This document shows, one piece after another, positions 4,745-41,245 of a DNA stretch of 64,000 nt. Under the pieces are notes generated by a model that was given only the letters and a program-made list of their open reading frames with translations, made no database searches and was not told where the DNA came from. Position numbers and translations under genes: made by a program. Each line of letters opens with the position of its first letter. The first letter of the stretch is position 1. Source of the DNA: Candidatus Woesearchaeota archaeon (GTDB lineage Archaea > Nanobdellota > Nanobdellia > Pacearchaeales > GW2011-AR1); assembly GCA_964514585.1 (NCBI GenBank), contig CAZETU010000004.1, positions 10,031 to 74,030 of the forward strand, given 5' to 3'.

Positions 4745-4759
4745 TTTTATTACTGTATT

Positions 4760-4972
4760 TTATTCCTTCTGTATTTGTTTAACTAGCCATACTATTGCCA
4801 AAACCAACACAACAACAAACAAAACGCCAATTAACCAACCAAAAAACATTCCACCAAAACCATAATTACCAGACATCATACCAGACATTCCACAACCATA
4901 ATCTCCAACATCAGCCGACACAAAACTCATCATCAAACCAACCGCCAAAATAAAAAAATATTTTTTATCCAT
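4760..4972 (-). CDS. small Met/Gly-rich membrane protein
   Basis: Signal-like N-terminus, then GCGMSGMMSGNYGFGGMFFG followed by a TM helix. It sits inside the copper cluster. Confidence 0.45.
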   Translation of the reverse strand: MDKKYFFILAVGLMMSFVSADVGDYGCGMSGMMSGNYGFGGMFFGWLIGVLFVVVLVLAIVWLVKQIQKE

Positions 4973-4973
4973 T

Positions 4974-5417
4974 CTAAAACCGATATCGCCCAGCCTCCAA
5001 ATTTAATTTAGTTATAATAAGATAATCTCCCTCAACTTCCGCAGGCAAATACCCAGGCCAACAACCGCCACCCTTTAAGTTCGCACTTCCGATTCCAGAA
5101 ATCCTATAATGATTCCCACAATTATTACAAACCATATCATCCCCTTCCTGCCGATAACCTTTCTTAGATCTATAACAAACATCACAAGCATTAAACGCCG
5201 TCTTCACCGAACCATCCTTAGCCCGAACAACAAAAAATTCAATCCCATCATAATCAAAAAACTGCGCCTCTTCGCCAATGCCATCTAAAGAAAACTTTAC
5301 AACATCTCCATCATCAATCATCTCAGCAGCAACTACATTCCCAGTCATTCCACCAAATACAATATATATAACACCAACTAAAACCAAGGCCCCAGCTCCA
5401 AAATATATCTTATTCAT
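4974..5417 (-). CDS. DUF2318-like Cys-rich membrane-anchored protein
   Basis: N-terminal TM helix. FNACDVCYRSKKGY...CNNCGNHY...GGCWP resembles the DUF2318 CxxC/CxxC pattern seen next to metal transporters. Confidence 0.55.
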   Translation of the reverse strand: MNKIYFGAGALVLVGVIYIVFGGMTGNVVAAEMIDDGDVVKFSLDGIGEEAQFFDYDGIEFFVVRAKDGSVKTAFNACDVCYRSKKGYRQEGDDMVCNNCGNHYRISGIGSANLKGGGCWPGYLPAEVEGDYLIITKLNLEAGRYRF

Positions 5418-5574
5418 TCAACACCCTCCTATTAATAGTATTAAACTTCCTCATACAAATCTTACAACAAAATTCCTCAAGACCCTCAATCGCCATCCCA
5501 CACATCTTACAGCCTCGACCAACGCCAGAAAAAACTTCCATTTTGCAAACAGGACAATTTAACACATCTCCCAT
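5410..5574 (-). CDS. 54-aa Cys-rich zinc-finger protein
   Basis: The track ORF 5410..5676 overlaps the upstream gene. The internal ATG at 5574 gives MGDVLNCPVCKMEVF..CKMCGMAIEG..FCCKICMRKF, starting 1 nt after the upstream stop codon. Confidence 0.45.
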   Translation of the reverse strand: MGDVLNCPVCKMEVFSGVGRGCKMCGMAIEGLEEFCCKICMRKFNTINRRVLNE

Positions 5575-5575
5575 C

Positions 5576-7024
5576 TTATCCTCCACAAGTCGAACCGCCG
5601 CCACAGCCCCCTCCACATCCGCCGCCACACGAACCATCACAACTACCACTAGAGGCAGTAACCTCCGCAGCAACATCTAACTGACTCGCCGACGCAACAC
5701 CATCATCAGTCACAACAAAAACCCCAGGAATCATTCCCATCCAACAACTCCACCGAACAGTCCCAATCTCATCAGGCGTAAACTCTACAACATTCATCCC
5801 CTTCTTCAACTTAACATCCAAGCCATAATCCCGAACAACAATCTCATTATTACACCCCGTCAATTCCTTCACATCAATATTCCACTTAACAGGAACCCCT
5901 TTTTTCAAAGTAAAAGTATCAGGAGTCCAACCATAACGATCAACCTCCATATTAATCACCTGATAATCCCCTTCTATTGCAGCACCAGCAGAACTCGCAC
6001 TAACACCAAACACGCTAGCGCCAATCGCACTAAAACTATAATCACTCCCCAAAACAACAAGCCCCCGATTCAACATTATCAATCCCAAAATTAAAACAAG
6101 AACCGCCGCAACTTTCAAAATCCTTTTAGTCGCATTCTTACTAATAACAGAAGTCAACGAACCAAACCCAATCAAAACAGGCAACGTCCCAAGACTAAAA
6201 GCCCCCAAAGATAAAAACCCAGTCCAAAAACTCCCTGTCCCAGCCGCATACAAATACAAAGCCTGCAACGGACCACAAGCGATAAACAAACCACTAAGTA
6301 TACCCGTCATAAAAGGCGCCTTGTAAAAGCCCTTAGCATCATGCGTCGTCTTGCCAGCCCACCTAGTCAAAAACTTCGGATTAAATTGAAACTTCCTAAA
6401 AAACCCGACACCGAGCATACTCAAAGCAAAAGCAATCATAAACAACCCAGCAAAAATCGCAATCCCCCCACGAAGCCCAACACTAAAAGCAAAGACCCCT
6501 CCAATCAAACCAAAAATTCCTCCGATCACAGCATAAGAAACAACCTTCGCCCCACCATAAACAAAATGCTGCTTAAACCCCTTGTGCCCCTTCTCAGCAT
6601 TCTTAGTAGTATACCCCACAACAAAAGCCCCGCACATCGAAATACAATGAAACCCAGTCAACACCCCAACAAAAAATAATATAATAAGACCAGAGCTCTC
6701 CCCAACACCAGGAATAGAAAAATTCAATTCAGAAACCCATCCATATATAAGATAAGCCAAAACACCCAAAGAACCAATCATAAACAAAAGCCCAATCTTA
6801 TCACCAACACTTCTACCCTTCTTCTCTTTCCTAATACTAAACTCATCATCTTCAATCAAACCAACAACTTCCTTTTCACTAATCTTATCCTCATCAAAAT
6901 CAACTTCAACAGTACCCTTAGAATAACTAGCCGAAACACTTCTAACCTTCTCCTTCAATTTACCTTCAATAAGATTAGAACATGAATTACAAGTCATCCC
7001 ATCAACTTCAAAAACCTTTTTCAT
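5576..7024 (-). CDS. three-module metal protein: HMA domain + DsbD_2/TauE-like polytopic membrane domain + cupredoxin-like domain with Cys-Gly tail
   Basis: N-terminus GMTCNSCSN (HMA). TM core with FHCISMCGAF and FIACGPLQ motifs. C-terminal beta-rich domain (KKGVPVKWNIDV..CNNEIV..WSCWMGMIPG). Tail SSGSCDGSCGGGCGGGCGGGSTCGG. Confidence 0.7.
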   Translation of the reverse strand: MKKVFEVDGMTCNSCSNLIEGKLKEKVRSVSASYSKGTVEVDFDEDKISEKEVVGLIEDDEFSIRKEKKGRSVGDKIGLLFMIGSLGVLAYLIYGWVSELNFSIPGVGESSGLIILFFVGVLTGFHCISMCGAFVVGYTTKNAEKGHKGFKQHFVYGGAKVVSYAVIGGIFGLIGGVFAFSVGLRGGIAIFAGLFMIAFALSMLGVGFFRKFQFNPKFLTRWAGKTTHDAKGFYKAPFMTGILSGLFIACGPLQALYLYAAGTGSFWTGFLSLGAFSLGTLPVLIGFGSLTSVISKNATKRILKVAAVLVLILGLIMLNRGLVVLGSDYSFSAIGASVFGVSASSAGAAIEGDYQVINMEVDRYGWTPDTFTLKKGVPVKWNIDVKELTGCNNEIVVRDYGLDVKLKKGMNVVEFTPDEIGTVRWSCWMGMIPGVFVVTDDGVASASQLDVAAEVTASSGSCDGSCGGGCGGGCGGGSTCGG

Positions 7025-7906: not shown

Positions 7907-8563
7907 ATGACACTTATCCTAGGAATCGACGATGCAGGAAGAGGCCCCGTCCTAGGACCAATGACTCTAGCCGGAGTAATAATAGACAAAAAAGACGAAC
8001 AAACACTAAGAAACTGGAACGCAAAAGATTCAAAACTCCTAACCCCAAAACAACGAGGCGAAATAAAAGAAAAAATAGTCGCCCAGTTTAAATATCACAC
8101 AGAAATTTCAACTCCAAAAGAAATAGACGATCACGAAAACTTAAACCTACTAGAAGCCCAAAAAACCGCAAAAATAATCAATGAACTAACTTACGAGCTA
8201 ACTGAGAAAGTGGAAGTTATAGTAGACTGCCCCTCAACAAACATCCAATCTTGGACAAATGATGTCCAAAAACTCCTCAAAAAACCAGAAATCATTTCCC
8301 TTTCCTGTGAACACAAAGCCGACGCAAACCACCCAATAGTCTCAGCCGCCTCAATCGTAGCAAAGGAAAAACGAGAAGACGAAGTCTACAAATTAAAACT
8401 CTCATTAAAGACCGACTTCGGTTCCGGATATCCCGCAGACCCAAAAACAAAAGAGTTCATTACAGAAAATTTTAACAACCCTAAATACAAGCACATTATC
8501 AGATTCTCGTGGAACACAGTCAAAAAACTAGTCAAAGCAACTAACCAAAAAAAACTATTCTAA
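7907..8563 (+). CDS. rnhB: ribonuclease HII
   Basis: ILGIDDAGRGPVLGPM N-terminal motif and typical length of 218 aa. Confidence 0.9.
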   Translation: MTLILGIDDAGRGPVLGPMTLAGVIIDKKDEQTLRNWNAKDSKLLTPKQRGEIKEKIVAQFKYHTEISTPKEIDDHENLNLLEAQKTAKIINELTYELTEKVEVIVDCPSTNIQSWTNDVQKLLKKPEIISLSCEHKADANHPIVSAASIVAKEKREDEVYKLKLSLKTDFGSGYPADPKTKEFITENFNNPKYKHIIRFSWNTVKKLVKATNQKKLF

Positions 8564-9003
8564 GGAATTACAAAAAAATAAGCAATCAAAAATACTAAAA
8601 CTATTACAATTATTCCAAGAAAAACCCAGATCCAATCATTCTTATGATAAATATGCTCACGACCAAACTTCCTTGGATTTTGCCATAAAGGAACCGTTAC
8701 TTTTTTCCAATAAAAATATTGAAGGATAGTACCGATAACAACCAGAAACACCATAGAAATAATATTATAAAACGTGATATCAATCATGAACAACTTAAAA
8801 AAAACAATAGCAATAAATGAATTAATAGAGGCATTTATGATGAAAAATTTCTTACTAATCAATAAAAAATTTTTCTTAAGAATCAAGCAAACAACTCCTG
8901 TCAGAATTAAAAGTATTAAAATAAAAGATACGATAAAAATAAAGCTTTTATTACCAAGAATCCAAGATAACATACCCATCAAACTCTCGAATCCCATAAG
9001 CAA
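8560..9003 (-). CDS. polytopic membrane protein, unknown function
   Basis: Four or more hydrophobic helices. No motif recognised. Confidence 0.5.
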   Translation of the reverse strand: MLMGFESLMGMLSWILGNKSFIFIVSFILILLILTGVVCLILKKNFLLISKKFFIINASINSFIAIVFFKLFMIDITFYNIISMVFLVVIGTILQYFYWKKVTVPLWQNPRKFGREHIYHKNDWIWVFLGIIVIVLVFLIAYFFVIP

Positions 9004-9043
9004 TTAATCATAATATTACTTATAAAACCTCATATAATTTCAA

Positions 9044-9301
9044 CTAATTAGAAGAAACTTTTCTAGAAACTTTTCTCTTCGAAATAAAATAAATCGCCCA
9101 CAACGTCGCAACAACAACCGGAGGATATAACATGAAACTTATTATCGCACGATTAATAGTAGCCCCACTAACAAGCCTATAAATTCCAAGTGAAAAAATA
9201 AAAACACACCCTATAGTTACTAAAAAAATAATAAACCACAATTCTCCATCGCCACCAGAGCTCAATCTTTCGTCACGCAACTTTTTCATAATAAAACCCA
9301 T
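9044..9301 (-). CDS. small two-TM membrane protein
   Basis: 85 aa with two hydrophobic segments. No motif recognised. Confidence 0.45.
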   Translation of the reverse strand: MGFIMKKLRDERLSSGGDGELWFIIFLVTIGCVFIFSLGIYRLVSGATINRAIISFMLYPPVVVATLWAIYFISKRKVSRKVSSN

Positions 9302-9335
9302 ACTTCAAAACTTATAAAATCTTCCAAACAAAAAA

Positions 9336-10250
9336 CTAAATACCATTCTCACAAGAATAAACGCCATCTATCAGATTTGAATTAGAAGGTATAATATATT
9401 CAATTTCATACTTCTTACAAATAGCCTCAACCAAAGCCGAGCAAACCCTCGCCCCATGCATCCACTTCGGAGATTCTGGCATCATACTCTCTAATTCTTG
9501 AAACTTAATCTTCGAGAAAATTTCCTCATTCTTCATAGCAAAATCAGCAAAACCTATAACACTCGGATGAGCAACATCATCAAAAAAAACATTTTTCACC
9601 AACGGATAATTCGCAAGTTGCATATAATTCAACTCTCCCCCAGTATAAAACGCCTTCAAAACTTTATTATCCAACTCCGGAAGTTCACCCTCAACAAAAT
9701 CAACAATAACTTTTTTATCAATAGAAGAAATCTCATCATTAACACCCAAAAACTTCTTCAACAAAACGCCAACTCCAATATCTACATTCTTCTTTTCAAT
9801 AGACTCACCATTACGCGCAACAACAAATTCAGTAGACCCACCTCCCACATTTATCAAAAGCACAGACTCATCTAAATCAAATTTCCCAAGCAAAGCTTTC
9901 TCTAAATAAAAATTCTCCATCTCATGAGAAATCACATTAAAAGACAACCCAGTTTTTTCATAAATCTTCTTCCCCAGTCTTTTACTAGCTTCAGAACTCA
10001 ACTTTCTAAAAACAGCAGTAGCATATATAGAAACAGAAAACCCAGAATAGGTCTCCTTTAATTCCTGCAAAAATTTAATCAACATTTCTTCATTTTTCAA
10101 ACTTATTCCCTCATCAGAAAAACCTTCATTAAAAAAAATCGACTCTATCTTCTCAAGAGAAAGTATCCCATCCGATGAGACATACACCTTAATCGTAGAG
10201 GATCCCACATCAATCAAAACCTTTTTATCATCCATAAAAAACAAACACAT
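9336..10250 (-). CDS. Ppx/GppA-like ASKHA-fold phosphatase
   Basis: LIDVGSSTIKVY and INVGGGSTEF phosphate-binding motifs. An alternative start ATG at 10235 (MDDKKVLIDVG) is likely. Confidence 0.6.
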   Translation of the reverse strand: MCLFFMDDKKVLIDVGSSTIKVYVSSDGILSLEKIESIFFNEGFSDEGISLKNEEMLIKFLQELKETYSGFSVSIYATAVFRKLSSEASKRLGKKIYEKTGLSFNVISHEMENFYLEKALLGKFDLDESVLLINVGGGSTEFVVARNGESIEKKNVDIGVGVLLKKFLGVNDEISSIDKKVIVDFVEGELPELDNKVLKAFYTGGELNYMQLANYPLVKNVFFDDVAHPSVIGFADFAMKNEEIFSKIKFQELESMMPESPKWMHGARVCSALVEAICKKYEIEYIIPSNSNLIDGVYSCENGI

Positions 10251-10265
10251 CCAATACTTATAAAA

Positions 10266-11168
10266 TTATTCAACCAACGGCAACTTCATCGCCAAAATCA
10301 AGTGAGTCAAGTCCGTCACGCTCTCAGAAATCTCAAAAAAATACCTCGACAACCTAGAATCCCCTTTTATCTTCCCAGCAACACCCCTAACCTTTCTCCT
10401 AATTTCATAACTTCTATCAATCTCCATAGAATCAAATCTATAAAACAAATCAAAAGAATATTCCAACATCTCCAGGCACAAATCCGCAAGCTTCCTCAAT
10501 TCAGCACTCTTCCTCGGACCCTCTTTAATGTTCATCCTCCACAACCTCAAAATGTTATCCCCAATCCGCTCCAACTCAAAAGAATAAGTAAACAACGCCC
10601 GACCATAAACCGCATCCGCGTAACTCATCTTATTAATCGACCTCTGCAAATATAGACACAACTTATTAATTTCCTTATCCCTCAAATTAAGATCGCACTC
10701 CTTCTCTTTTTCTTCGCCAAAAATATCAGCAATGGCAGATTCAAAAAACAAAATCACCGCTTGAAAAACCCTCTTAAAAACCTCATCCAAATCACTCAAC
10801 GGATTACCCCCAATATCTTTTATCAGATACTTATCTCCGTCCTTATCCACAAGAACATACCCAATCAAAGTATTAAGCGCATTCACAAGCAAAGTTGAAA
10901 TATCCTTCTCACTTGTAATCTCAATTTCATCAACTCCAACAGCATAAAGAGAATTCAAATGCAAAAACACATTCTTAAAATAAAACCCAGACATATCCAC
11001 TTTAGCCCGCTTCTTCTTGGTTCCACCCAAATTAGAAACAATCAAACTCTTACCATCCTCAATCACATCGACCTCTTTCTTCTCGTCAATATCATTTTCC
11101 CGGACCCATTTGATCGGCAAAGTCAAAGTATACGCACTCCCCGCCTGTTTAATCACCTTTCTTTTCAT
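10266..11168 (-). CDS. archaeal-type phosphate uptake regulator (AbrB/SpoVT domain + PhoU domain)
   Basis: N-terminus KVIKQAGSAYTLTLPIKWVRENDI is an AbrB-like swapped hairpin. The C-terminal helical repeats are PhoU-like. Confidence 0.7.
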   Translation of the reverse strand: MKRKVIKQAGSAYTLTLPIKWVRENDIDEKKEVDVIEDGKSLIVSNLGGTKKKRAKVDMSGFYFKNVFLHLNSLYAVGVDEIEITSEKDISTLLVNALNTLIGYVLVDKDGDKYLIKDIGGNPLSDLDEVFKRVFQAVILFFESAIADIFGEEKEKECDLNLRDKEINKLCLYLQRSINKMSYADAVYGRALFTYSFELERIGDNILRLWRMNIKEGPRKSAELRKLADLCLEMLEYSFDLFYRFDSMEIDRSYEIRRKVRGVAGKIKGDSRLSRYFFEISESVTDLTHLILAMKLPLVE

Positions 11169-17430: not shown

Positions 17431-18630
17431 TTAATAATAACTAGTTTCTACTTCTTCCATTGGCTTTTCTTTTCGAGTAAGAAGGACAATTAAAACTGCA
17501 AGGAGTACAACAAAGATAATCACAAGGATTACTGTTAAAGCAACAACAGATGACGAGACATTAGTCCCAACAACGTTAGCTCCGAAAACAGCTTGTTTAC
17601 CGTCAACATCTACAGAGAAAGTATAAGTTCCAATTGCAGCATCATCGTCTGCAGTAACTGTTATAGAAACTGTTTCGCTAGCATCTGGGCCAACAGTAAC
17701 TACTGAAGGAGCCGATACGCTCAAAACATCTCCGGAAACAGCACTAATCTGGAAAACCTTAACATTATCTGCCGAGTTAACAATAACCAATTCATAAGTT
17801 ACTGTTTCTCCTGCGTTTAAGTCCTTACTTTTTACAGCCGACAAAACCATAGTAGAAGCCGCATCATCAATACTGATAAGCTTCTTCACAATAGTTTCAG
17901 TGTCTTCATTGTAAACCACGATTTCCATTTCATAAACACCGCTATCAGCGTTCGTTGGAATCTTCAAGTATACAATTTCTTCATGAGAGTCTTCTTCGTG
18001 ATCTTCTTCTCCGTCTTCGATAGGAATCAAGTCTCTAGCATAACCTCGAGTGGAAACACCCAAAGCTGGAATAGAGGCAACAACGTAAACGTCGTCCATC
18101 CTATTGTAACCATTGTTCTTTATAACAATAGAAACAGGAATAACTTCTCCGCCTTGAACTTTAGAAGTATAGTCAACAGATAAGATTTCAAGAGTATATG
18201 ATTCTCTCTGCATCTTAACAGTATAGTCAACTTCAGATCTATCGTTCTTAGAAACAACTTCAACATAAAGAGTATATTCTTCAGATAAGTCGTTAGCGTC
18301 AGAAGGAAGTCTCAAAGATAAAAGCTTAGTATATGTTGTACCATCTTCGATATCGAATCTAGTAGTAGAAGCCGAAACATCGTCCCGGTGACCTTCCATA
18401 TATACCTTAACTTTAACGTCACTCATGTCTTTACTCGCGTCGAAAATAACCTTAACGGGGACTGTACCTGAAACGTCACCAGCCATATTAGTATTTTGAT
18501 TTAACCAAACTCCATTGAATTCGGTATCAATACCAGTAACCAGTTCGTCAGCAGAGGCAAAGCCTACAACCATCAAAGTTAAAACTGCAATAAAAGCAAC
18601 CAAAAGCACATTTCTTTTCATATTTTTCAT
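17431..18630 (-). CDS. cell-surface (S-layer-like) protein with signal peptide and C-terminal TM anchor
   Basis: Start trimmed to MKNMKRNVLLVAFIAVLTLMVVGFASA. The body is beta-rich and Thr/Val/Ser-rich, and the C-terminal helix is VVALTVILVIIFVVLLAVLIVLL. Confidence 0.6.
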   Translation of the reverse strand: MKNMKRNVLLVAFIAVLTLMVVGFASADELVTGIDTEFNGVWLNQNTNMAGDVSGTVPVKVIFDASKDMSDVKVKVYMEGHRDDVSASTTRFDIEDGTTYTKLLSLRLPSDANDLSEEYTLYVEVVSKNDRSEVDYTVKMQRESYTLEILSVDYTSKVQGGEVIPVSIVIKNNGYNRMDDVYVVASIPALGVSTRGYARDLIPIEDGEEDHEEDSHEEIVYLKIPTNADSGVYEMEIVVYNEDTETIVKKLISIDDAASTMVLSAVKSKDLNAGETVTYELVIVNSADNVKVFQISAVSGDVLSVSAPSVVTVGPDASETVSITVTADDDAAIGTYTFSVDVDGKQAVFGANVVGTNVSSSVVALTVILVIIFVVLLAVLIVLLTRKEKPMEEVETSYY

Positions 18631-18761
18631 TTTGAATTTAGTTAAAATTGAAACAAATGAAAAGTATATAAAGCTTACCATTGTTGTAATTCCAGAAGGA
18701 CGAAAACACTTAAAAAGTATACTGAAGTATACAATATGTCACAAAAGATAGTAATAAAAAA

Positions 18762-23782: not shown

Positions 23783-25069
23783 TTACAACTTCTTTTCAAC
23801 AAGAGATTTACAAACGCCTGCCGCAACTGTAACACCAGCGTCTCGGATAGCGAATCTCGCCATGTATGGATTATCTGTAACAGATTCCATAACTAGATTT
23901 CCGATCGGTTTGATCTTAACAATAGCAACATCCCCATTCTTCAAAAAGTCTGGGTTCTCTTCAGAGACTTGTCCGCTTGCAGGGTCCAACTTAGCCTTAA
24001 GTTCCACGAATTGACATGGGACTTGAGCTGTGTGAACATGGAAAACTGGTGTGTAACCTTTAGCGATTACTGTTGGGTGGTTGATAACAGCAATTTGTGC
24101 TTCAAACTCTTCAACAATCTTAGCCGGGTTAGCAGCATCACAAATAACGTCGCCTCGAGCCATGTCTTTCTTACCAACACCTCGGATGTTGATACCGACA
24201 TTGTCTCCAGCTTCGCCTTCTTTTAACTGCTCATGGTGAGCTTCGATAGATCGAACTTCACCTGCAATTCCAGTTCCAGATCGTCCTGGTAATACGATAA
24301 CCTTTTGACCGATTTTCATAATTCCAGTTTCAATCTTTCCTACAGGAACAGTACCAATACCCGTGATATCATAGACATCTTGGATTGGCATTCTCATCGG
24401 TAAAGTAGTTGGTTTTTCTGGTGCAGGGAACTTATCAATCTGTTCTAGAACAGTTGGTCCTTTGTACCATGCTATATTCTCGCTTCTCTTAGCCATGTTG
24501 TCGCCCATAAGAGCGGAACCTGCGATAAACGGAGTTTCGTCAGGATTGTATCCAGCTTGTTTAATAACAACCTTTACATCCTCAACAGCCTTATTGTACT
24601 TAGTCTCATCATACTTAACAACGTCCATTTTATTAATAAGAACTGCAATGTTTTTTACACCCATAGTTCGAAGTAACCAAACGTGTTCTTTTGTCTGAGG
24701 TTGTACACCGTCTTCGCATCCAACAACTAAGAAGGCAGCATCTGCTTGCGAAGCACCTGTGATCATGTTTTTAACAAAATCCTTATGTCCTGGTGCATCA
24801 ATAATTGTAACTTCATAATTCTGAGTAACAAGCTTCTTGTAAGACAAGTTAATAGTAACTCCTCTTTCTCGCTCTTCCTTCAGATTATCAGTAAAATAAG
24901 CAAACTCAAATCCTGCTTTACCGTGTTTCTCTGCTTCTTCCTTGAACTTCTTCATTTCCTGATCGGAAATAGCTCCGCCTTCAAAGAATACTCTACCAAC
25001 TGCGGTAGACTTTCCCTGATCGACGTGCCCAACGAAGACAACATTCATTCCTGGTTTTTCTTTAGCCAT
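23783..25069 (-). CDS. tuf: translation elongation factor EF-1 alpha
   Basis: GHVDQGKST, DAPGHKDF and NKMD GTPase motifs over 428 aa. Confidence 0.95.
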   Translation of the reverse strand: MAKEKPGMNVVFVGHVDQGKSTAVGRVFFEGGAISDQEMKKFKEEAEKHGKAGFEFAYFTDNLKEERERGVTINLSYKKLVTQNYEVTIIDAPGHKDFVKNMITGASQADAAFLVVGCEDGVQPQTKEHVWLLRTMGVKNIAVLINKMDVVKYDETKYNKAVEDVKVVIKQAGYNPDETPFIAGSALMGDNMAKRSENIAWYKGPTVLEQIDKFPAPEKPTTLPMRMPIQDVYDITGIGTVPVGKIETGIMKIGQKVIVLPGRSGTGIAGEVRSIEAHHEQLKEGEAGDNVGINIRGVGKKDMARGDVICDAANPAKIVEEFEAQIAVINHPTVIAKGYTPVFHVHTAQVPCQFVELKAKLDPASGQVSEENPDFLKNGDVAIVKIKPIGNLVMESVTDNPYMARFAIRDAGVTVAAGVCKSLVEKKL

Positions 25070-29955: not shown

Positions 29956-30192
29956 TTATCTCAAAGAGAAAACTTCAGATTCAAAATCGAGATTTAATTC
30001 CTTGGCTAATTCTGCTTTAGGCTTCAAAACAACAAATTCAATTCCAGCAGATTCCAACTTTTCAACAGTCTCATCTCGAGTATCTTTAGCAATAAAAACG
30101 CCTTTCAATCCCTTCGGATTTTTCAAAGCTTGACGAACACCAAAACAAACATTCTTTTTTTCCATTCCTTCCCGAATTTCTTTTACGCTCAT
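29956..30192 (-). CDS. rpl30e: ribosomal protein eL30 (short form)
   Basis: L7Ae/L30e-like sequence at the conserved position directly after rpoA. At 78 aa it is shorter than usual. Confidence 0.65.
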   Translation of the reverse strand: MSVKEIREGMEKKNVCFGVRQALKNPKGLKGVFIAKDTRDETVEKLESAGIEFVVLKPKAELAKELNLDFESEVFSLR

Positions 30193-33100
30193 ACTTTCTT
30201 CTCCTTTGTCTTCTCTTCTTTCTTAAGTTTCGATTGGACAGCCAATGGGCCAGTAACTTTAACCAACAACCCAGGAAGACCCGTACCAACAGGAACCGGC
30301 TGATTCAAAATAACATTCTCAATCACCGACGCCAACTTATCCTTTCTACCAGTCTTAGTAGCCTGAACAAACTGCTTATCTGGAGTCTCAAACGCAGCCC
30401 TTGCCAAAATCGAACTCTTGTCCCCAATAATACCCATTCGAGTAATACCCTTAACAGCACCAGAACCAGTCATAGTATCCGCGACAAGCATAGCGTGCTT
30501 GCCATCAATCGCAAGACCCTGAGAAACAATTACACCATTAATTTCATTAATAACTAATTGTCGAGCAGCCTCAATTCCCAAAACATCCGAAACCTCATAA
30601 ATATCATTCGTAATAATCCTATCAGCATCGATACCCTTAAACTTCAGCAAATCCTTTAAATTTGAACCAGCCGTCAAAATCACATAATCCCTATCCCTCT
30701 TAACAACCAAAACCTGCGAAATCTTCTTAACACCAGTCAAAATAACTTCCTTAATTTTCTCCTTAGTTTTATAAATCATCTTAAAATCTTCCTTAGACAT
30801 ATCAAGAGTAATTCCGTCAGACAACTTCTTAGCATCGAAACCCTTATCATTCAAAACCTCAACAGCCTTATCTAAAGTTATGTGAGCCAATTTCAAAGAT
30901 GCATTATCAACACCAATCTTAATCTTCTTAGAGCCAAAATCAATCCCAATCTCAGAAACAATTTCCTTCAACTTAACTTCCTTAATCTTCTCAGCAACAA
31001 CCCTAGCATCCTTCTCATTATTATGATCCTTATCCAAATAAATAACCATAGCTGGTGTCTTAGGTAACTTACGAGCATCCAAAATTTCAATTATTCTCGG
31101 CAACCCCTGAGTAACCTGCATCTCTGCAACACCAGCAGCGTGAAACGTATTCAAAACCATCTGAGTCGAAGCTTCACCAAAACTCTGAGCAGTCACAACA
31201 CCAATAGCTTCACCAGACGCAACCGGCATATTCTTATGTTTAGCAGAAACATCAATCCCATCAAGACCATACTTAAACTGAACAATATTATTAGAAGCAT
31301 CCCTCACAGTACCGTCGTAAGCCATAACCAAATCCTGCAAAGAATTTGCCAACCTTCTATACAAATAACCAGACTTCGGCGTCCTAAGAGCTACATCCAT
31401 CAGACCATCTCGACCAGTCATAGAACCAAAGAAAAATTCCTGAGCAGTCAAACCTTTCATCAAAGAACTATAAATAAACCCTCTAGCCTTCGGCGACAAA
31501 TCTCCCTTCTTGAAAAACGGCAATGTCCTATCGGTATACCCAAAATCAATTCTACGCCCATTCAATACTTGCTGCCCAACCGAACAGGCAATCTGAGTAA
31601 TATTAAGCATACTACCCTTCGCCCCCGAACCAATCATCTTACTAGTCAAATTATCCTTAGGAAAACCTTCCTTAACAGCGTCACCAATCTCAGTTCGAGT
31701 CTCATTCAAAACCTGCAAAACCTTATTTTCCCTCGTCTCCTCAGAACTCTTACCCGGCAAGCATTCAATACTGCCATCGTAATAACTATCAATAATTTTC
31801 TGAGACTTAGCCTCAGCAACTTCAATAATCTTAGCCGTCTTATTCTTAACTTCCTTAGGAACGTCTAAATCAGTCATAGAAAGTGTAAACCCCGTCCTCG
31901 ATAAAAAAGTCGTACCAATGGCAAAAACTCTTCTCAAAAGTTCAGTAACCTCACTTCGACTCATCTTAGTATCAGCGATCCTTAAAGCGTCGCCACTACC
32001 TTCCTTAAATCCTTTAAAATCGACATTATCTCCAGCCATAACTTTAGGGATAACTTTATCAAAAACATCCTTTCCTGAATTCATTGCCTTAAAATTAGGA
32101 ACCTCAACGCCCGCTTCATACATCAATTGCGAAGCGTCCTCCTTACTAAGTTCAGCCTCATTCAACATAAAATTCCCACTAACAGCATCCGCAACACAGC
32201 CTAAAAAATTCATATTATTCTTTGGCGAAAATAAATTATTATCAACATTCAACAAAACCTCTGCTTCAGCCCTAGCCTCTTCAGTCTGTGGAGCGTGAAT
32301 ATTCATCTCATCCCCATCAAAGTCCGCACCATAGGGACCACAAACAGCAGGATGAATTCTAAAAGTCCTACATGGAAGAACCTTAACAAAATGAGCCATC
32401 AGCGACGCTCTATGCAAAGAAGGATGCCTATTAAACAAAACAATGTCTCCATCAATCAAATGCCTCTCAACAACATAACCAGGCTCAATCTCCTCTTTCA
32501 ATTCTTCCCTCAAATCATTAGTAATTCTTTTCCTCTTCCCATCAGGTCGAATAATATAATTAGCACCAGGATATTCCGCCTTCATAATCAATTCCTTCAA
32601 CTTCTTAATATTAAGCGATGTCACCCTCTCTGCAGCAGTCAAAATCTTTGCAACTTCAAAAGGAACACCAACTTCATTTAGCCTCATATTAGGATCCGGA
32701 GAAATAACAGTACGAGCAGAAAAATTAACTCTCTTCCCAGCCAAATTCTTTCTAATTCGTCCTTCCTTACCTTTAATTCTCTCAGTAATAGTCTTCAATG
32801 GCTGACCACTTCTATGCCTCGCTGGCGGAATCTTTGCAATTGAATTATCAAAGAAGGTCGTAATATGATACTGCAATAAATCCCAAAGATCCTCGATAAT
32901 AACCTCAGGCGCACCAGCATTCAAATTTTCCCAAAGCCTTTGATTAGACCGAATAATATCCGACAACTTATGTGTCAAATCATCTTCACTTCTTTCACCA
33001 GATTCCAAAGTAATAGAAGGTCGAACCGTTACAGACGGAACAAGCAACAAAGTCAAAATCGCCCATTCAGGCCTCAAAGTCTCAGCATTAATTCCCAAAA

Positions 33101-33629
33101 TCTTCAAATCGTCGTCGCTAACCTTAACCAATCTCTCCCTAATCTCAGAAGGGAAAAGTCTCCGCCTACCTGATCTAAAGGTAGTAGGTTTCTCCAACTT
33201 AACTTTCTCCTGAATAATACTACAATGAGGACATTTCTTTCCATCCTTAGCCTTCTTAATTCTATCAATCAAATTCTTACTCAAATCCTTCTCTTCTTTA
33301 ATTAAAACCTTACCACAAGCCTCACAAGTTGACCTCAAAACCAAATCAATAATTGGCAGATACTTAATATGAACAAGAGGTCGAGCTAATTCAATAACAC
33401 CAGGATGACCAAGACATTCCTTCAATCGACCACCACAAGTTCTACACCGAACACCAGGGTCAATCGCACCAAGCCTCAAATCCATCAAACCACCATCAAC
33501 CGGATAACCATCAACGTCATAAAGCTCCGGCGTCACAATCTTCGCAACACTCAACTTCTTAATCTGCTCAGGACTAAGTAAGTGAAAAGTCATCGCATCA
33601 ATTTGTTTCTTAATTGGTTTCCTACTCAT
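30189..33629 (-). CDS. rpoA: RNA polymerase subunit A, with A' and A'' parts fused in one 1146-aa ORF
   Basis: A' hallmarks: zinc CRTCGGRLKECLGHPG, active-site YGADFDGDEMN and bridge helix GRDGLMDVALRTPKSGY. These are followed in frame by the A'' trigger-loop region GEAIGVVTAQSFGEASTQMVLNTFHAAGV (junction near 31215-31245). Confidence 0.9.
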   Translation of the reverse strand: MSRKPIKKQIDAMTFHLLSPEQIKKLSVAKIVTPELYDVDGYPVDGGLMDLRLGAIDPGVRCRTCGGRLKECLGHPGVIELARPLVHIKYLPIIDLVLRSTCEACGKVLIKEEKDLSKNLIDRIKKAKDGKKCPHCSIIQEKVKLEKPTTFRSGRRRLFPSEIRERLVKVSDDDLKILGINAETLRPEWAILTLLLVPSVTVRPSITLESGERSEDDLTHKLSDIIRSNQRLWENLNAGAPEVIIEDLWDLLQYHITTFFDNSIAKIPPARHRSGQPLKTITERIKGKEGRIRKNLAGKRVNFSARTVISPDPNMRLNEVGVPFEVAKILTAAERVTSLNIKKLKELIMKAEYPGANYIIRPDGKRKRITNDLREELKEEIEPGYVVERHLIDGDIVLFNRHPSLHRASLMAHFVKVLPCRTFRIHPAVCGPYGADFDGDEMNIHAPQTEEARAEAEVLLNVDNNLFSPKNNMNFLGCVADAVSGNFMLNEAELSKEDASQLMYEAGVEVPNFKAMNSGKDVFDKVIPKVMAGDNVDFKGFKEGSGDALRIADTKMSRSEVTELLRRVFAIGTTFLSRTGFTLSMTDLDVPKEVKNKTAKIIEVAEAKSQKIIDSYYDGSIECLPGKSSEETRENKVLQVLNETRTEIGDAVKEGFPKDNLTSKMIGSGAKGSMLNITQIACSVGQQVLNGRRIDFGYTDRTLPFFKKGDLSPKARGFIYSSLMKGLTAQEFFFGSMTGRDGLMDVALRTPKSGYLYRRLANSLQDLVMAYDGTVRDASNNIVQFKYGLDGIDVSAKHKNMPVASGEAIGVVTAQSFGEASTQMVLNTFHAAGVAEMQVTQGLPRIIEILDARKLPKTPAMVIYLDKDHNNEKDARVVAEKIKEVKLKEIVSEIGIDFGSKKIKIGVDNASLKLAHITLDKAVEVLNDKGFDAKKLSDGITLDMSKEDFKMIYKTKEKIKEVILTGVKKISQVLVVKRDRDYVILTAGSNLKDLLKFKGIDADRIITNDIYEVSDVLGIEAARQLVINEINGVIVSQGLAIDGKHAMLVADTMTGSGAVKGITRMGIIGDKSSILARAAFETPDKQFVQATKTGRKDKLASVIENVILNQPVPVGTGLPGLLVKVTGPLAVQSKLKKEEKTKEKKV

Positions 33630-36886: not shown

Positions 36887-37090
36887 TTAAATCACAACCC
36901 TATAATAAACTTCGGCCAAATCACCCTTTCGTTCAATTTTAACAACGTCTCCAGTCTCACAACCTTCAGGAAGAGCAGCGTCCTTCTTAGAAATTTTCGG
37001 CAACTGCGCCAAAGCAATATTAAACTGAAGCAGAACCTTCTCTACCTCATTGGGATTCAGCTTCGTGTGCTTTGGTTGGAGTATATGCAT
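36887..37090 (-). CDS. rpoH: RNA polymerase subunit H (Rpb5-like)
   Basis: HILQPKHTKLNPNEVEKVLLQFNI..LPKI...GDVVKIER..YYRVV, positioned upstream of rpoB. Confidence 0.9.
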   Translation of the reverse strand: MHILQPKHTKLNPNEVEKVLLQFNIALAQLPKISKKDAALPEGCETGDVVKIERKGDLAEVYYRVVI

Positions 37091-37248
37091 CTTACTTTTA
37101 GAATATTACCTTTAGATAAAAAAAAGACCAAAAATGGCTTTAAAAACTTTTGCTTTTTGTTATTATAAAGTAGTTCGAGACAAAATTGCCCTCCCACAAA
37201 GATACATTACAATAATACTTTTAAATCACATTAATATAATTCATTAAA

Positions 37249-38166
37249 ATGATTAACAGACAAAGAACCATCAAAAAACCATTTAAGCTTTCAGGAATAG
37301 AAGCACTTGGTGGAAAATCTGTATATGTTTATTTTGAGAAAGCTCCAGTAGACAATGGAATTAAGTTTATAACTCCCTCTGGATACATTCCTGCATCATT
37401 AGATTGCGTTAAATCGAAAACAGCTTTTTTAGATCTTGCACGAACATTATCCCTAAGCAATGGAAGAAATGATATTCTAGTGCCAGAACATTTACTTGGG
37501 ATCGTCTTTGGAATGGAGCTAGATAATGCAAATATAATCTTAGAAACAGAAGAATCAAGAAGTTATTCTGCTTTAAAAGGAATATTGGGGTCTTCTAATT
37601 CTGATGTTGTACCATATCTCGGAGAAGCTCTATATGATCACTTAGAAAATAATTTAGAAGAACAAGAAACCCCTAGAAAAAATTTATTTCTCGAACACAG
37701 AATAGAAAGTGATAGATTATCCATAGAACCAACAGATAGAAAGGGAATAATTATAGACATAGAAACTGACTATAAATTAAGAAGTGGAGAAAGAGTGATT
37801 CAATCATATAAGGGGGAAATAACACCCGAACTAGTAAAAGAAATTTCATTAGCCAGAGCCTATTGCAGAGTTCCACACTGGTCCCCAAAAACTTTAACAA
37901 AATTTCTGAGTCAGTTCTTCTATCTTTCACAAGGCTTAGGGAATGGGAGCAATAAAGATAATATTTTTTATCCAGAAAAAACCGCCAATGGTTGGCATGC
38001 CCAAGAAAGAGTGGAGGCCGAAATAGTCAAACATTCAATTTTAGACAAACTGGGAGAAATAGCATTACTATCAGGAAGATTATCTAGAGTAAAAATAACA
38101 TCTCGTGGAGCAAGTCATAAACACACAATGGGGTTTCTTCAAAAATATCAAGACAAATTTAGATAA
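37249..38166 (+). CDS. LpxC-like zinc deacetylase homologue
   Basis: By recall of E. coli LpxC: RQRTIKKPFKLSGIEALGGKSVYVYFEKAPVDNGIKF vs [32 protein letters not shown]; PEHLL vs VEHL (E78/H79); VKHSILDKLGE vs VRHKMLDAIGD (H238/D242); GASH vs SGH (H265). Length is 305 aa. Confidence 0.65.
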   Translation: MINRQRTIKKPFKLSGIEALGGKSVYVYFEKAPVDNGIKFITPSGYIPASLDCVKSKTAFLDLARTLSLSNGRNDILVPEHLLGIVFGMELDNANIILETEESRSYSALKGILGSSNSDVVPYLGEALYDHLENNLEEQETPRKNLFLEHRIESDRLSIEPTDRKGIIIDIETDYKLRSGERVIQSYKGEITPELVKEISLARAYCRVPHWSPKTLTKFLSQFFYLSQGLGNGSNKDNIFYPEKTANGWHAQERVEAEIVKHSILDKLGEIALLSGRLSRVKITSRGASHKHTMGFLQKYQDKFR

Positions 38167-38271
38167 AAAATAGTCCGAGGGAATTAAAGAGTCTTTATAA
38201 CTCCTTAGAAATTATTTACAATTTCGGCCGAGCTTCTTTGAAGCGACGGTTGTTCAAAGACCCGAGAAAAA

Positions 38272-38346
38272 TGGCCCCGAGGGGATTTGAACCCCCGACA
38301 CCTGGATTAAAAGTCCAGTGCTCTAACCAGGCTGAGCTACGGAGCC
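38272..38346 (-). tRNA. tRNA-Lys (anticodon UUU)
   Basis: 75 nt. Acceptor ggctccg/cggggcc, anticodon arm ctgga-ctTTTaa-tccag, T arm ggggg-ttcaaat-cccct. Confidence 0.9.
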
Positions 38347-38369
38347 ATTAAATTACTGAGAAAATTTAA

Positions 38370-40282: not shown

Positions 40283-40921
40283 TCAACCACTTCCAAAAGC
40301 CGCTTCTCCTCGAACAGAATCTGACAATTCATCTACAGTCTCAATATCCACCATTGCAACCGGCGCAATCACAACTTGAGCAACTTGATCTCCAGTTCTA
40401 ATCACAAAATCCTCATCACTTGTATTCAAGAAAACAACCCCATATTCTCCAGTATAAGTATACTCGATTACTCCCCCAAGAATACAAATCCCCCTCTTAT
40501 ATGCCAAACCACTCTTCCCCCGAATCGAAGCGAAATAACCCTCAGGCAATTCCATCGCAATCCCCGTAGAAATCAACTGTCTTTTTCCAGCCGGCACAAC
40601 ATAATCTTCACAAGAATGCAAATCTAAAGCAGCATCACCAGGATGTCCATAACTAGGAATGATAGCATTCTCCTTCAATTTTTTAATCTTCACTTTAACC
40701 GCCCCCTCGTCAATCAACTCAAACCGCTTAACCCTTCGACCATCCTCAAAAATCTTATCCCCACAAAACTCATCCAACAACCTAACCCAAGTCACGCCAT
40801 CACCGTAAAGAGCCTTATACACAACTAACATCTGATCCGTATTATCACAATTCCGCGCAACATCAACAATCTCATATTCGCCCCCCTTAAAATGCCGATA
40901 CCGCTCTCCAACCTCAACCAT
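40283..40921 (-). CDS. dut: DUF1653 domain fused to trimeric dUTPase
   Basis: Start trimmed to MVEVGERYRHFKGGEYEIV (the DUF1653-like YRHFKGG..Y..V.......VVY.ALYG....WVR pattern). dUTPase motifs follow: GDAALDL, RGKSG, GVIEYTYTGE and RGEAAFGSG. Confidence 0.8.
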   Translation of the reverse strand: MVEVGERYRHFKGGEYEIVDVARNCDNTDQMLVVYKALYGDGVTWVRLLDEFCGDKIFEDGRRVKRFELIDEGAVKVKIKKLKENAIIPSYGHPGDAALDLHSCEDYVVPAGKRQLISTGIAMELPEGYFASIRGKSGLAYKRGICILGGVIEYTYTGEYGVVFLNTSDEDFVIRTGDQVAQVVIAPVAMVDIETVDELSDSVRGEAAFGSG

Positions 40922-40961
40922 AAAAAACAAAACAACTAACACTTTATAAAAATTATTACAC
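40698..40961. repeat. direct repeat copy A (DUF1653 coding region plus its promoter-proximal flank)
   Basis: 264 nt aligning without gaps to 40982-41245, including ccataaaaaacaaaac...ctttataaaaattattacac upstream of both start codons. Confidence 0.8.
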
Positions 40962-40977
40962 TCTAATCTCCACTTCT

Positions 40978-41205
40978 TCAAACCGAACTCTCATCAATCA
41001 ACTCAAACCGTTTAACCCTCCGTCCATCATCAAAAACTTTATCTCCACAAAACTCATCAAGCGACCTGTCCCAAGTCCCACCCTCGCCATAAAGCGCCTT
41101 ATACTTAACTAACATCTGACCTGCATTATCACAATTCGGCGCAACATCAATAATCTCATACTCGCCACCCTTAAAATGCCGATATCTCTCTCCAGCCTCA
41201 ACCAT
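40978..41205 (-). CDS. stand-alone DUF1653 protein (paralogue of the dut N-terminal domain)
   Basis: MVEAGERYRHFKGGEYEIIDVAPNCDNAGQMLVKYKALYGEGGTWDRSLDEFCGDKVFDDGRRVKRFELI is near-identical in pattern to residues 1-70 of the fusion protein. Confidence 0.75.
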   Translation of the reverse strand: MVEAGERYRHFKGGEYEIIDVAPNCDNAGQMLVKYKALYGEGGTWDRSLDEFCGDKVFDDGRRVKRFELIDESSV

Positions 41206-41245
41206 AAAAAACAAAACCCAAAATACTTTATAAAAATTATTACAC
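40982..41245. repeat. direct repeat copy B
   Basis: See copy A. By eye, roughly 80-85% of positions are identical. Confidence 0.8.

Follow-up and report, generated by a model that had tools for sequence, protein, structure and literature searches.

An LpxC-like gene between rpoH and tRNA-Lys

We analyzed a stretch of 64,000 nucleotides (nt) of contig CAZETU010000004.1 from a Candidatus Woesearchaeota archaeon (hereafter, the window), in which an open reading frame (ORF) located between the RNA polymerase subunit gene rpoH and a tRNA-Lys gene encodes a protein of 305 amino acids (aa), P0001, similar to LpxC, the uridine diphosphate (UDP)-3-O-acyl-N-acetylglucosamine (GlcNAc) deacetylase. LpxC catalyzes the first committed step of lipid A biosynthesis; it is regarded as diagnostic of bacteria that have an outer membrane and produce lipid A, and is an important target for antibiotics. 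The ORF had been singled out in an original prediction made from the sequence alone, and both its coordinates and its two flanks are borne out here (Table 1). The TTTAAAT box upstream of the start codon is a putative archaeal promoter, and the mRNA is likely leaderless or nearly so.

Table 1. Features of the LpxC-like gene and its locus, in window coordinates (clade A is the archaeal group of LpxC-like proteins defined in the next section)
Feature	Position	Strand	Basis or remark
LpxC-like ORF, 305 aa (P0001), member of archaeal clade A of the LpxC fold	37249..38166	+	ORF call, PF03331, AlphaFold2 model, tree
rpoH (RNA polymerase subunit H, Rpb5 C-terminal domain), left neighbor	36887..37090	-	PF01191 RNA_pol_Rpb5_C, 63.1 bits
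tRNA-Lys(UUU), right border of the insertion site	38271..38347	-	ARAGORN; adjoins rpoH in genus relatives too
Putative TATA-like box TTTAAAT, 23-29 nt 5' of the ATG	37220..37226	+	Sequence reading
Codons of Glu80-His81 (E. coli Glu78, His79), predicted general base and first metal ligand	37486..37491	+	Aligned to EH of P. aeruginosa LpxC
Codons of His262-Ser263-x2-Asp266-x3-Glu270; His262 and Asp266, predicted metal ligands 2 and 3 (E. coli His238, Asp242)	38032..38058	+	Column counts
Codon of His290, predicted general acid (E. coli His265)	38116..38118	+	Column counts
Codon of Ala204, at the position of the oxyanion-stabilizing Thr191 of true LpxC	37858..37860	+	Column counts
Clade-specific insertion of ~18 residues (residues ~101-121)	37549..37611	+	Alignment; modelled helix 104-113
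Enlarged, remodelled Insert II region (residues ~206-234)	37864..37950	+	Segment lengths; pLDDT 78-88
Lineage-specific inserted segment; only the LpxC-like gene and its promoter inside	37187..38270	.	Spacer comparison with genus relatives

A distinct archaeal branch of the LpxC fold

P0001 is confirmed as a genuine member of the LpxC fold. Its match to the Pfam profile PF03331 scores 69.5 bits (gathering cut-off 27; E = 4.3e-19) and covers model positions 1-265 of 268, and a search of the whole genome with this profile recovers the gene at 66.9 bits. The LpxC chains of Pseudomonas aeruginosa in the PDB were matched by phmmer (E = 3e-10). The AlphaFold2 model, built with 42 homologs in the alignment (predicted local distance difference test score, pLDDT, 92.8; predicted template modelling score, pTM, 0.91), contains the two-domain beta-alpha-alpha-beta sandwich of LpxC, and its best 50 Foldseek matches in the PDB are all LpxC, with template modelling (TM) scores of 0.71-0.76 and E-values down to 2.5e-21. 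The resemblance to LpxC along the full length of the protein, as proposed originally, is upheld at a level well above chance; the motifs noted at the time are indeed present as QRT (residues 5-7), E80-H81, H262-x3-D266-x3-E270 and S289-H290. Against the profiles that delineate LpxC proper, P0001 scores far too low, with 35.7 bits against a cut-off of 187.25 for the NCBIfam equivalog model TIGR00325, and 54.4 against 465 for PRK13188.

Clade A, the group to which P0001 belongs, was defined from an exhaustive HMMER search against 1.84 billion cluster representatives, in which just 261 proteins reached E<=1e-3 and 60 of them E<=1e-10. The top 55 or so of these proteins form a family of 300-340 aa, with the classical LpxCs appearing only in the tail of the list; at 50% identity, clade A amounts to roughly 50 clusters in public data. 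The nearest relatives of P0001, 47-33% identical, all come from archaeal contexts, whereas the identity to bacterial LpxCs is about 20-24%. The readable genomic contexts of clade A are likewise all archaeal, with ribosomal protein genes L15e and S17e, ATP-dependent DNA ligase, RFC, FEN1, PolB, HerA, TYW2 and Alba.

Phylogenetic trees were constructed for 147 sequences with FastTree and for 65 sequences with IQ-TREE. In the IQ-TREE tree, the classical LpxCs are confined to one side of a branch with a support of 100 in the Shimodaira-Hasegawa-like approximate likelihood ratio test (SH-aLRT), and clade A, including P0001, is supported at 99; the FastTree topology is consistent with this arrangement. 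No placement of P0001 inside the classical LpxC clade was found in these trees. On the non-classical side there is also a second archaeal group, clade B, whose members retain the residue corresponding to Lys239 of E. coli LpxC and lack those corresponding to Thr191 and Asp246. Thus, clade A is an archaea-specific branch and, together with the result of a full-text literature search, in which no paper on LpxC homologs in DPANN or other archaea was found, represents an uncharacterized archaeal subfamily of the LpxC fold. One of the two origins originally proposed for the gene, horizontal acquisition from a bacterium, is, as a recent event, not supported by the genes that the nearest relatives sit beside (L15e, ATP-dependent DNA ligase, RFC, PolB, Alba). 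The other, recruitment of the fold for a different N-deacetylation, fits better, given the separate archaeal clade, the loss of the diphosphate-binding residues and of Thr191, and a glycan gene cluster in the sister clade, all described below.

Two further LpxC-like genes came to light in this survey (L, G and C numbers denote our loci, genomes and contigs). A DPANN genome (L026; G384:C57:6327-7322, minus strand) encodes a protein with the full classical signature T-F-D...H-K-D-D...H, which forms a long branch among bacterial LpxCs and whose gene adjoins that of cytidylate kinase; the gene either was truly acquired from a bacterium or is a contaminant. A genome of the same genus as the one analyzed here (L028; G003:C45:927-1790, minus strand) encodes a very divergent LpxC-like protein of 287 aa (PF03331, 21.7 bits) in which EH, H-K-x2-D and a late GH are present.

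Catalytic and substrate-pocket residues

In E. coli LpxC, Zn is bound by His79, His238 and Asp242, the phosphate site consists of Lys143, Lys239, Lys262 and His265, the nucleotide site includes Asp160 and Phe161, and the acyl tunnel is lined by Met195, Ile198, Phe212 and Val217 (PMC10254716). We counted the residues in the corresponding alignment columns (E. coli numbering) in 48 clade A sequences and 73 classical LpxCs. The five core catalytic positions, Glu78, His79, His238, Asp242 and His265, are invariant in all 73 classical sequences and kept in 47-48 of the 48 clade A members, where they correspond to Glu80, His81, His262, Asp266 and His290 of P0001; specifically, the Glu80-His81 pair is found in 47 clade A sequences, and the His262, Asp266 and His290 columns are each complete. 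The retention of the Zn ligands and of the catalytic Glu and His, as originally predicted, is therefore supported by the alignment across the clade. Several other residues are conserved as well: the aromatic residue at position 161, Phe or Tyr in classical LpxCs, is Tyr in 47 of 48 clade A sequences (Tyr175 here), Asp160 of the nucleotide site is kept as Asp174, Arg190 (71/73 classical, 48/48 clade A) as Arg203, and Glu234 (72/73 and 46/48) as Glu258.

Other parts of the pocket are rebuilt. Three residues that are universal among the 73 classical LpxCs are replaced in clade A: Thr191 mostly by Pro (19 sequences), Ala (11), Ser (6) or Arg (5), with Ala204 in P0001; Lys239 by Thr or Ser in 42 of 48, with Ser263 here; and Asp246 by Ala (31) or Glu (8), with Glu270 here. 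Position 143, variable even among classical LpxCs (Ser in 20, Lys in 13, Ala in 12, Arg in 8), is missing from 40 of 48 clade A sequences, P0001 included; position 262, basic (Lys or Arg) in 59 of 73 classical sequences, is most often Phe (21), Gly (9) or Arg (7) in clade A, and is Gly287 here, with Arg286 next door. Thus, all three lysines that contact the UDP phosphates (Lys143, Lys239, Lys262) are gone from P0001. The DGS motif, present in 67-70 of the 73 classical LpxCs, is absent from clade A including P0001, and it is preceded in the alignment by an insertion of 18 residues (the H78..P101 segment has a median length of 41 residues in clade A versus 23 in classical LpxCs), in line with the divergence of the IPIMDGSA region noted originally. 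Insert II, from which the acyl tunnel is built in true LpxC, is about 14 residues longer (median of the R189..H237 segment, 62 versus 48). In this part of the protein, where the alignment is uncertain, the positions of Ile198 and Val217 of the acyl tunnel are still hydrophobic, whereas that of Phe212, hydrophobic in classical LpxCs, tends to be charged in clade A (Glu in 15, Lys in 9, Arg in 6, Asp in 5) and is Lys236 in P0001.

Our reading of this pattern is that the hydrolytic chemistry has probably been kept while substrate recognition has changed. Judging from the retained residues, P0001 would be a soluble, cytoplasmic, metal-dependent (probably Zn2+) amidohydrolase, in which His81, His262 and Asp266 would hold the metal, Glu80 would activate the metal-bound water, and His290 would protonate the leaving amine, resulting in the hydrolysis of an N-acetyl (or short N-acyl) amide.

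Search for a lipid A pathway

The host genome assembly (1.04 Mb in 18 contigs, 89.7% complete) carries the archaeal markers RpoH, L15e, AglB and ATP-dependent DNA ligase, and its small size points to an archaeon of the DPANN type. Whole-genome searches, for which E. coli, Caulobacter, Synechococcus and Bacteroides served as positive controls, gave no match at E<=1 to the LpxA C-terminal domain (PF13720), LpxB (PF02684) or LpxD (PF04613), and only sub-threshold noise for LpxK (PF02606, 9.8 bits) and the Kdo (3-deoxy-D-manno-oct-2-ulosonic acid) transferase WaaA (PF04413, 12.1 bits). The originally noted lack of lpxA, lpxB and lpxD next to the LpxC-like gene thus extends to the entire genome, and to lpxK and waaA.

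That P0001 is nevertheless a bona fide LpxC, either making a lipid A-like molecule in this archaeon or acting on the lipid A precursors of a bacterial partner, is extremely unlikely. The full-length PF03331 match, the fold and the complete metal and acid-base set are what such an enzyme would have, and a gene for a MaoC-like hot-dog dehydratase that adjoins the clade A gene at locus L032 (and a pseudogene remnant of the clade A gene at L071) recalls the bacterial LpxC-FabZ fusions. However, the rest of the pathway is missing, the equivalog score is five-fold under its cut-off, P0001 falls outside the classical clade, and Thr191, Lys239, Asp246, Lys143, Lys262 and the DGS motif are all lost; furthermore, P0001 has no signal peptide, which makes access to a cytoplasmic intermediate of a partner implausible. 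With the other lipid A genes missing and the UDP-3-O-acyl-GlcNAc pocket rebuilt, it is very likely that P0001 functions as a metal amidase of the LpxC fold and takes no part in making lipid A.

Selection and distribution of the gene

The identical 305-aa protein is encoded on 20 separately assembled contigs (JGI, ENA and Logan; many samples), always in the order rpoB-rpoH-gene-DCD (dCTP-deaminase-like gene), and a homolog with 84% identity, P0002, has the same neighbors. An erroneous joining of bacterial DNA to an archaeal contig during assembly or binning, which the atypical composition of the gene (see below) might suggest, has a negligible probability in view of these recurrent junctions, the shared neighbors of P0002, and the archaeal provenance of the closest homologs; the possibility of a chimeric contig, raised with the original prediction, can be dismissed.

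Comparison of P0001 with P0002 gave a ratio of nonsynonymous to synonymous substitution rates (dN/dS) of 0.20, with dS of 0.41, indicating that the gene is under purifying selection. It is, at the same time, an accessory gene: matches were detected in 4 of 61 genomes of the nearest relatives (with PF03331), in 9 of 401 genomes of the order (7 of 153 genera), and in 10 of 401 at the level of the phylum, a patchy distribution over about 2% of related genomes. At one of the clade A loci (L071; G756:C1:62994-63191), the LpxC-like gene survives as a pseudogene remnant, corresponding to residues ~234-302 and interrupted by one TGA and one TAA codon, between the genes for an intein-bearing DUF87/HerA-like protein and a MaoC-like protein. 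The patchy distribution, this remnant in G756 and the loss of Thr191 (and, in most clade members, of Asp246) would also fit a gene in decay, or a protein that has lost catalysis and retains just the fold, perhaps serving in binding or regulation. We consider this very unlikely, given the low dN/dS, the retention of the five core catalytic residues across about 50 divergent clusters (47-48 of the 48 counted), and the ORF that is intact and identical on 20 contigs.

Gene contexts and the predicted substrate

The most informative gene context belongs to clade B. At locus L069 (G607:C9:191-17048), in a genome of the same family, a clade B gene (7983-8858, minus strand) overlaps by 8 nt a gene encoding a Hexapep-DegT fusion and lies in a same-strand run with genes for a GFO_IDH_MocA oxidoreductase, PMT_2, and glycosyltransferases (GT) GT2 and GT9. 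The adjoining genes encode Wzx, GT4, a TylF methyltransferase and AglB/STT3, and the cluster also includes genes for a nucleoside 2-deoxyribosyltransferase-like protein and a second GT2. The logic of this cluster argues that archaeal LpxC-like enzymes can serve in the amino-sugar tailoring of surface glycans. The genome analyzed here has glycan genes of its own at C1:148-164 kb, namely, AglB, a GlcNAc-1-P-type GT4, GT1, a hexapeptide transferase and a nucleotidyltransferase, and the retained uracil-stacking aromatic residue (Tyr175; 47/48), Arg203 and Glu258 also speak for a sugar substrate. On balance, we lean toward the combined interpretation that P0001 is an LpxC-fold amidase, distinct from the lipid A enzyme, that would act on a substrate of the sugar or glycoconjugate class. 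By analogy with clade B, the substrate may be an N-acetylated amino sugar or glycoconjugate of a cell-surface glycan pathway, an assignment that we make tentatively, with somewhat less than even confidence, because the clade A loci show only housekeeping neighbors.

Several observations weigh against these conclusions. None of the ~14 clade A loci examined is in a glycan cluster; their neighbors are L15e, DNA ligase, DUF87/HerA, TRM5/TYW2, cytidylate kinase, an amino acid-polyamine-organocation (APC) permease-methyltransferase fusion and His_Phos_1. The sugar assignment draws on the sister clade B, which still has Lys239. Homologs of DegT and GFO_IDH_MocA were not found in the genome analyzed here, so the L069 pathway itself is not present in it. 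The loss of Thr191, together with that of Asp246 in most clade members, could reduce catalytic power. Finally, the sequencing runs that contain the locus are exclusively DNA metagenomes from salt lakes, and no RNA runs hold it.

Alternatively, P0001 could serve in salvage, as an amidase acting on a small N-acetylated or N-acylated metabolite taken up from outside, such as an N-acetyl amino acid or polyamine, N4-acetylcytidine, or an amide of the pantothenate/pantetheine type, an activity from which an archaeon that depends on a host and synthesizes little itself would benefit. Genes for transport or nucleotide metabolism are frequent neighbors in clade A: the APC permease-methyltransferase fusion gene adjoins LpxC-like genes in three genomes (L021, L024, L026), and a gene for cytidylate kinase does so in two (L022, L026); the window itself encodes dCTP deaminase, dUTPase, Nudix and NrdD, and L068 and L034 have Nudix together with His_Phos_1. 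A substrate other than a nucleotide sugar would also be in keeping with the disappearance of the three lysines that contact the UDP phosphates. However, no neighbor is common to more than 3-6 of ~24 loci, those that are common being housekeeping genes that dominate tiny genomes, and the orientations differ among loci. Moreover, 47 of 48 clade members keep the aromatic residue responsible for uracil stacking in LpxC, and no transporter gene adjoins the LpxC-like gene in its own genome. We therefore regard a small-metabolite substrate as possible but rather unlikely.

An apparent functional link of LpxC-like genes to DUF87/HerA, initially seen at five loci, was rejected: the link at L070 turned out to be an intein-to-intein match to MCM, and L029, L032 and L071 represent a single syntenic block, leaving about two independent cases. 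The inteins concerned, of the LAGLIDADG type, reside in MCM at L070 (G545; 3551-6928, minus strand) and in the DUF87/HerA-like ATPase at L071 (G756; 8206-10830, minus strand), and it was their similarity that produced the false signal of a shared neighbor.

Origin of the gene in the rpoH-tRNA-Lys spacer

In about 16 of 29 relatives from the same genus, rpoH and tRNA-Lys are only 115-250 nt apart, and conservation among relatives extends over the ~95 nt directly upstream of rpoH, up to '...GTAGTTCGAGACAAAAT'. Among the genus relatives compared, an LpxC-like gene is found in this spacer only here and in the organism that encodes P0002; in four others (G013, G011, G025, G021) the spacer is filled by unrelated ORFs of 117-269 aa. 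The rpoH-tRNA-Lys(UUU) spacer (window 37091-38270; loci L073-L101) appears as a small insertion hot spot in the genus, in which the orientation of the tRNA gene relative to rpoH flips between species. At two of these loci (L077, ~1830-1900; L080, ~1230-1300), a partial copy of the 3' end of tRNA-Lys ('TGGCCCCGAGGGGATTT...') lies beside the full tRNA-Lys gene.

The LpxC-like gene ranks at the 2.9th percentile of the genome in G+C content at third codon positions (GC3, 0.21) and has a GC skew of -0.19 at these positions, compared with -0.42 to -0.84 in other plus-strand genes. The atypical GC3 and skew are consistent with a relatively recent arrival of the gene on the plus strand; the initial impression, by eye, of a native composition holds only in part, given both of these departures. 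The window as a whole (1-64000) displays an extreme strand asymmetry, with ~80% of the genes on the minus strand, third-position GC skew of about +0.8 in minus-strand and about -0.6 in plus-strand genes, and a monotonic cumulative skew. The skew outliers, 37249-38166, 17431-18681 and 23783-25069, may be recent inversions or insertions.

Elsewhere in clade A, the gene occupies other positions. Its closest relatives are arranged L15e-gene-DNA ligase, and a more distant part of the clade has the gene in a block between DUF87 (HerA-like) and a MaoC-like double hot-dog gene followed by TRM5/TYW2 (L032, L029, L071). The genome analyzed here keeps the DUF87-MaoC-like-TRM5 block (C2:15879-18688) with no LpxC-like gene in it, and no LpxC remnant was found at this locus (C2:15.9-18.7 kb). 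We conclude that the gene moved or was transferred among DPANN archaea and is not a recent bacterial import; an insertion into the rpoH-tRNA-Lys spacer from another DPANN archaeon is most likely.

A 19-nt imperfect direct repeat brackets the gene (TTTAGATAAAAAA[A/T]AG[A/T]CC; 89% identity; 37111-37129 and 38158-38176). It was rejected as a target-site duplication since the sequence conserved in the relatives carries on beyond the copy at 37111-37129 and not beyond the other one; a match this good is close to what chance would produce in AT-rich DNA, and the repeat is probably fortuitous or a shared regulatory motif. Around the insert, no att-like duplication of the tRNA-Lys 3' end was found, and searches for defense and phage families with PADLOC and PHROGs gave no meaningful match.

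Other features of the window

Past tRNA-Lys, the window encodes the dCTP-deaminase-like protein, a Nudix protein, a DUF1653-dUTPase fusion, a second DUF1653 protein, an NrdG-like radical-SAM activase and NrdD. The dUTPase with the N-terminal DUF1653 domain (40283-41214, minus strand) is thus preceded by the stand-alone DUF1653 gene within this nucleotide-metabolism run. In most archaea, the A' and A'' subunits of RNA polymerase are encoded by separate genes. RNA polymerase subunit A at 30189-33629 (minus strand) is a single ORF of 1146 aa with Rpb1 domains 1-5, in which A' and A'' are apparently fused.

Discussion

Compared with LpxC (EC 3.5.1.108; PF03331/TIGR00325; structures 5UPG of P. aeruginosa, 4MDT of E. 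coli and 1P42 of A. aeolicus), P0001 has the same two-domain fold (TM ~0.75), the His/His/Asp metal site with the Glu general base and the His general acid, the N-terminal Q-x-T, the Arg before the Thr191 position, Glu234 and the aromatic residue at the Phe161 position. It differs in its low identity (~20-24%), the insertions of 18 and about 14 residues, the separate clade, the archaeal host without a lipid A pathway, and the lack of Thr191, Lys239, Asp246 (replaced by Glu in P0001 and mostly by Ala across the clade), Lys143, Lys262 and DGS. The proteins of clade B (G607:C9:7983-8858, G050, G045, G412) are, like those of clade A, of DPANN origin, of similar length, non-classical, and without Thr191 and Asp246, but they have retained Lys239 and, in many cases, a basic residue at 262, and lack the clade A insertions. 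One clade B member is located inside an N-glycan/amino-sugar cluster (GFO_IDH_MocA, Hexapep-DegT, PMT_2, AglB), whereas no clade A member examined is.

Bacterial pathways such as GnnA/GnnB-LpxA-LpxC, for lipid A of the GlcN3N type, and WbpB/WbpE/WbpD, for UDP-2,3-diacetamido sugars, follow an oxidize-aminate-acylate(-deacetylate) logic on a UDP-GlcNAc scaffold. Locus L069 likewise brings an LpxC-fold deacetylase together with an oxidoreductase, an aminotransferase and a hexapeptide acyl/acetyltransferase, a likeness that holds for clade B in another genome and in which the product would be a glycan sugar rather than a lipid A precursor. In archaea and eukaryotes, the de-N-acetylation of GlcNAc conjugates is usually performed by the zinc-dependent enzymes of the PIG-L/LmbE family (GlcNAc-PI deacetylase, MshB, the diacetylchitobiose deacetylase of Thermococcus), which are functional analogs of the role proposed here, with an unrelated fold and family. 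A bolder scenario, which we consider doubtful, is that the archaeal LpxC-like clades, rather than being degenerate imports from bacteria, constitute an old independent branch of the fold that de-N-acetylates lipid- or nucleotide-linked amino sugars for surface glycans, with the bacterial lipid A LpxC being one specialized offshoot of a wider family of sugar deacetylases, and clade A being a new DPANN-specific activity, for example, on dolichol-linked GlcNAc or another amphipathic GlcNAc conjugate.

The preservation of the catalytic machinery in an archaeal branch that is under selection and in which the pocket is rebuilt argues that the LpxC fold has at least one other natural substrate. Annotation pipelines that label such genes as UDP-3-O-acyl-GlcNAc deacetylase would assign a false capacity for lipopolysaccharide synthesis to DPANN genomes. 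The clade B gene in the AglB/DegT/GFO cluster provides a testable pathway hypothesis. Identification of the substrate would add a new enzyme activity, and may shed light on surface-glycan tailoring, or on the salvage of acetylated compounds, in host-dependent archaea.

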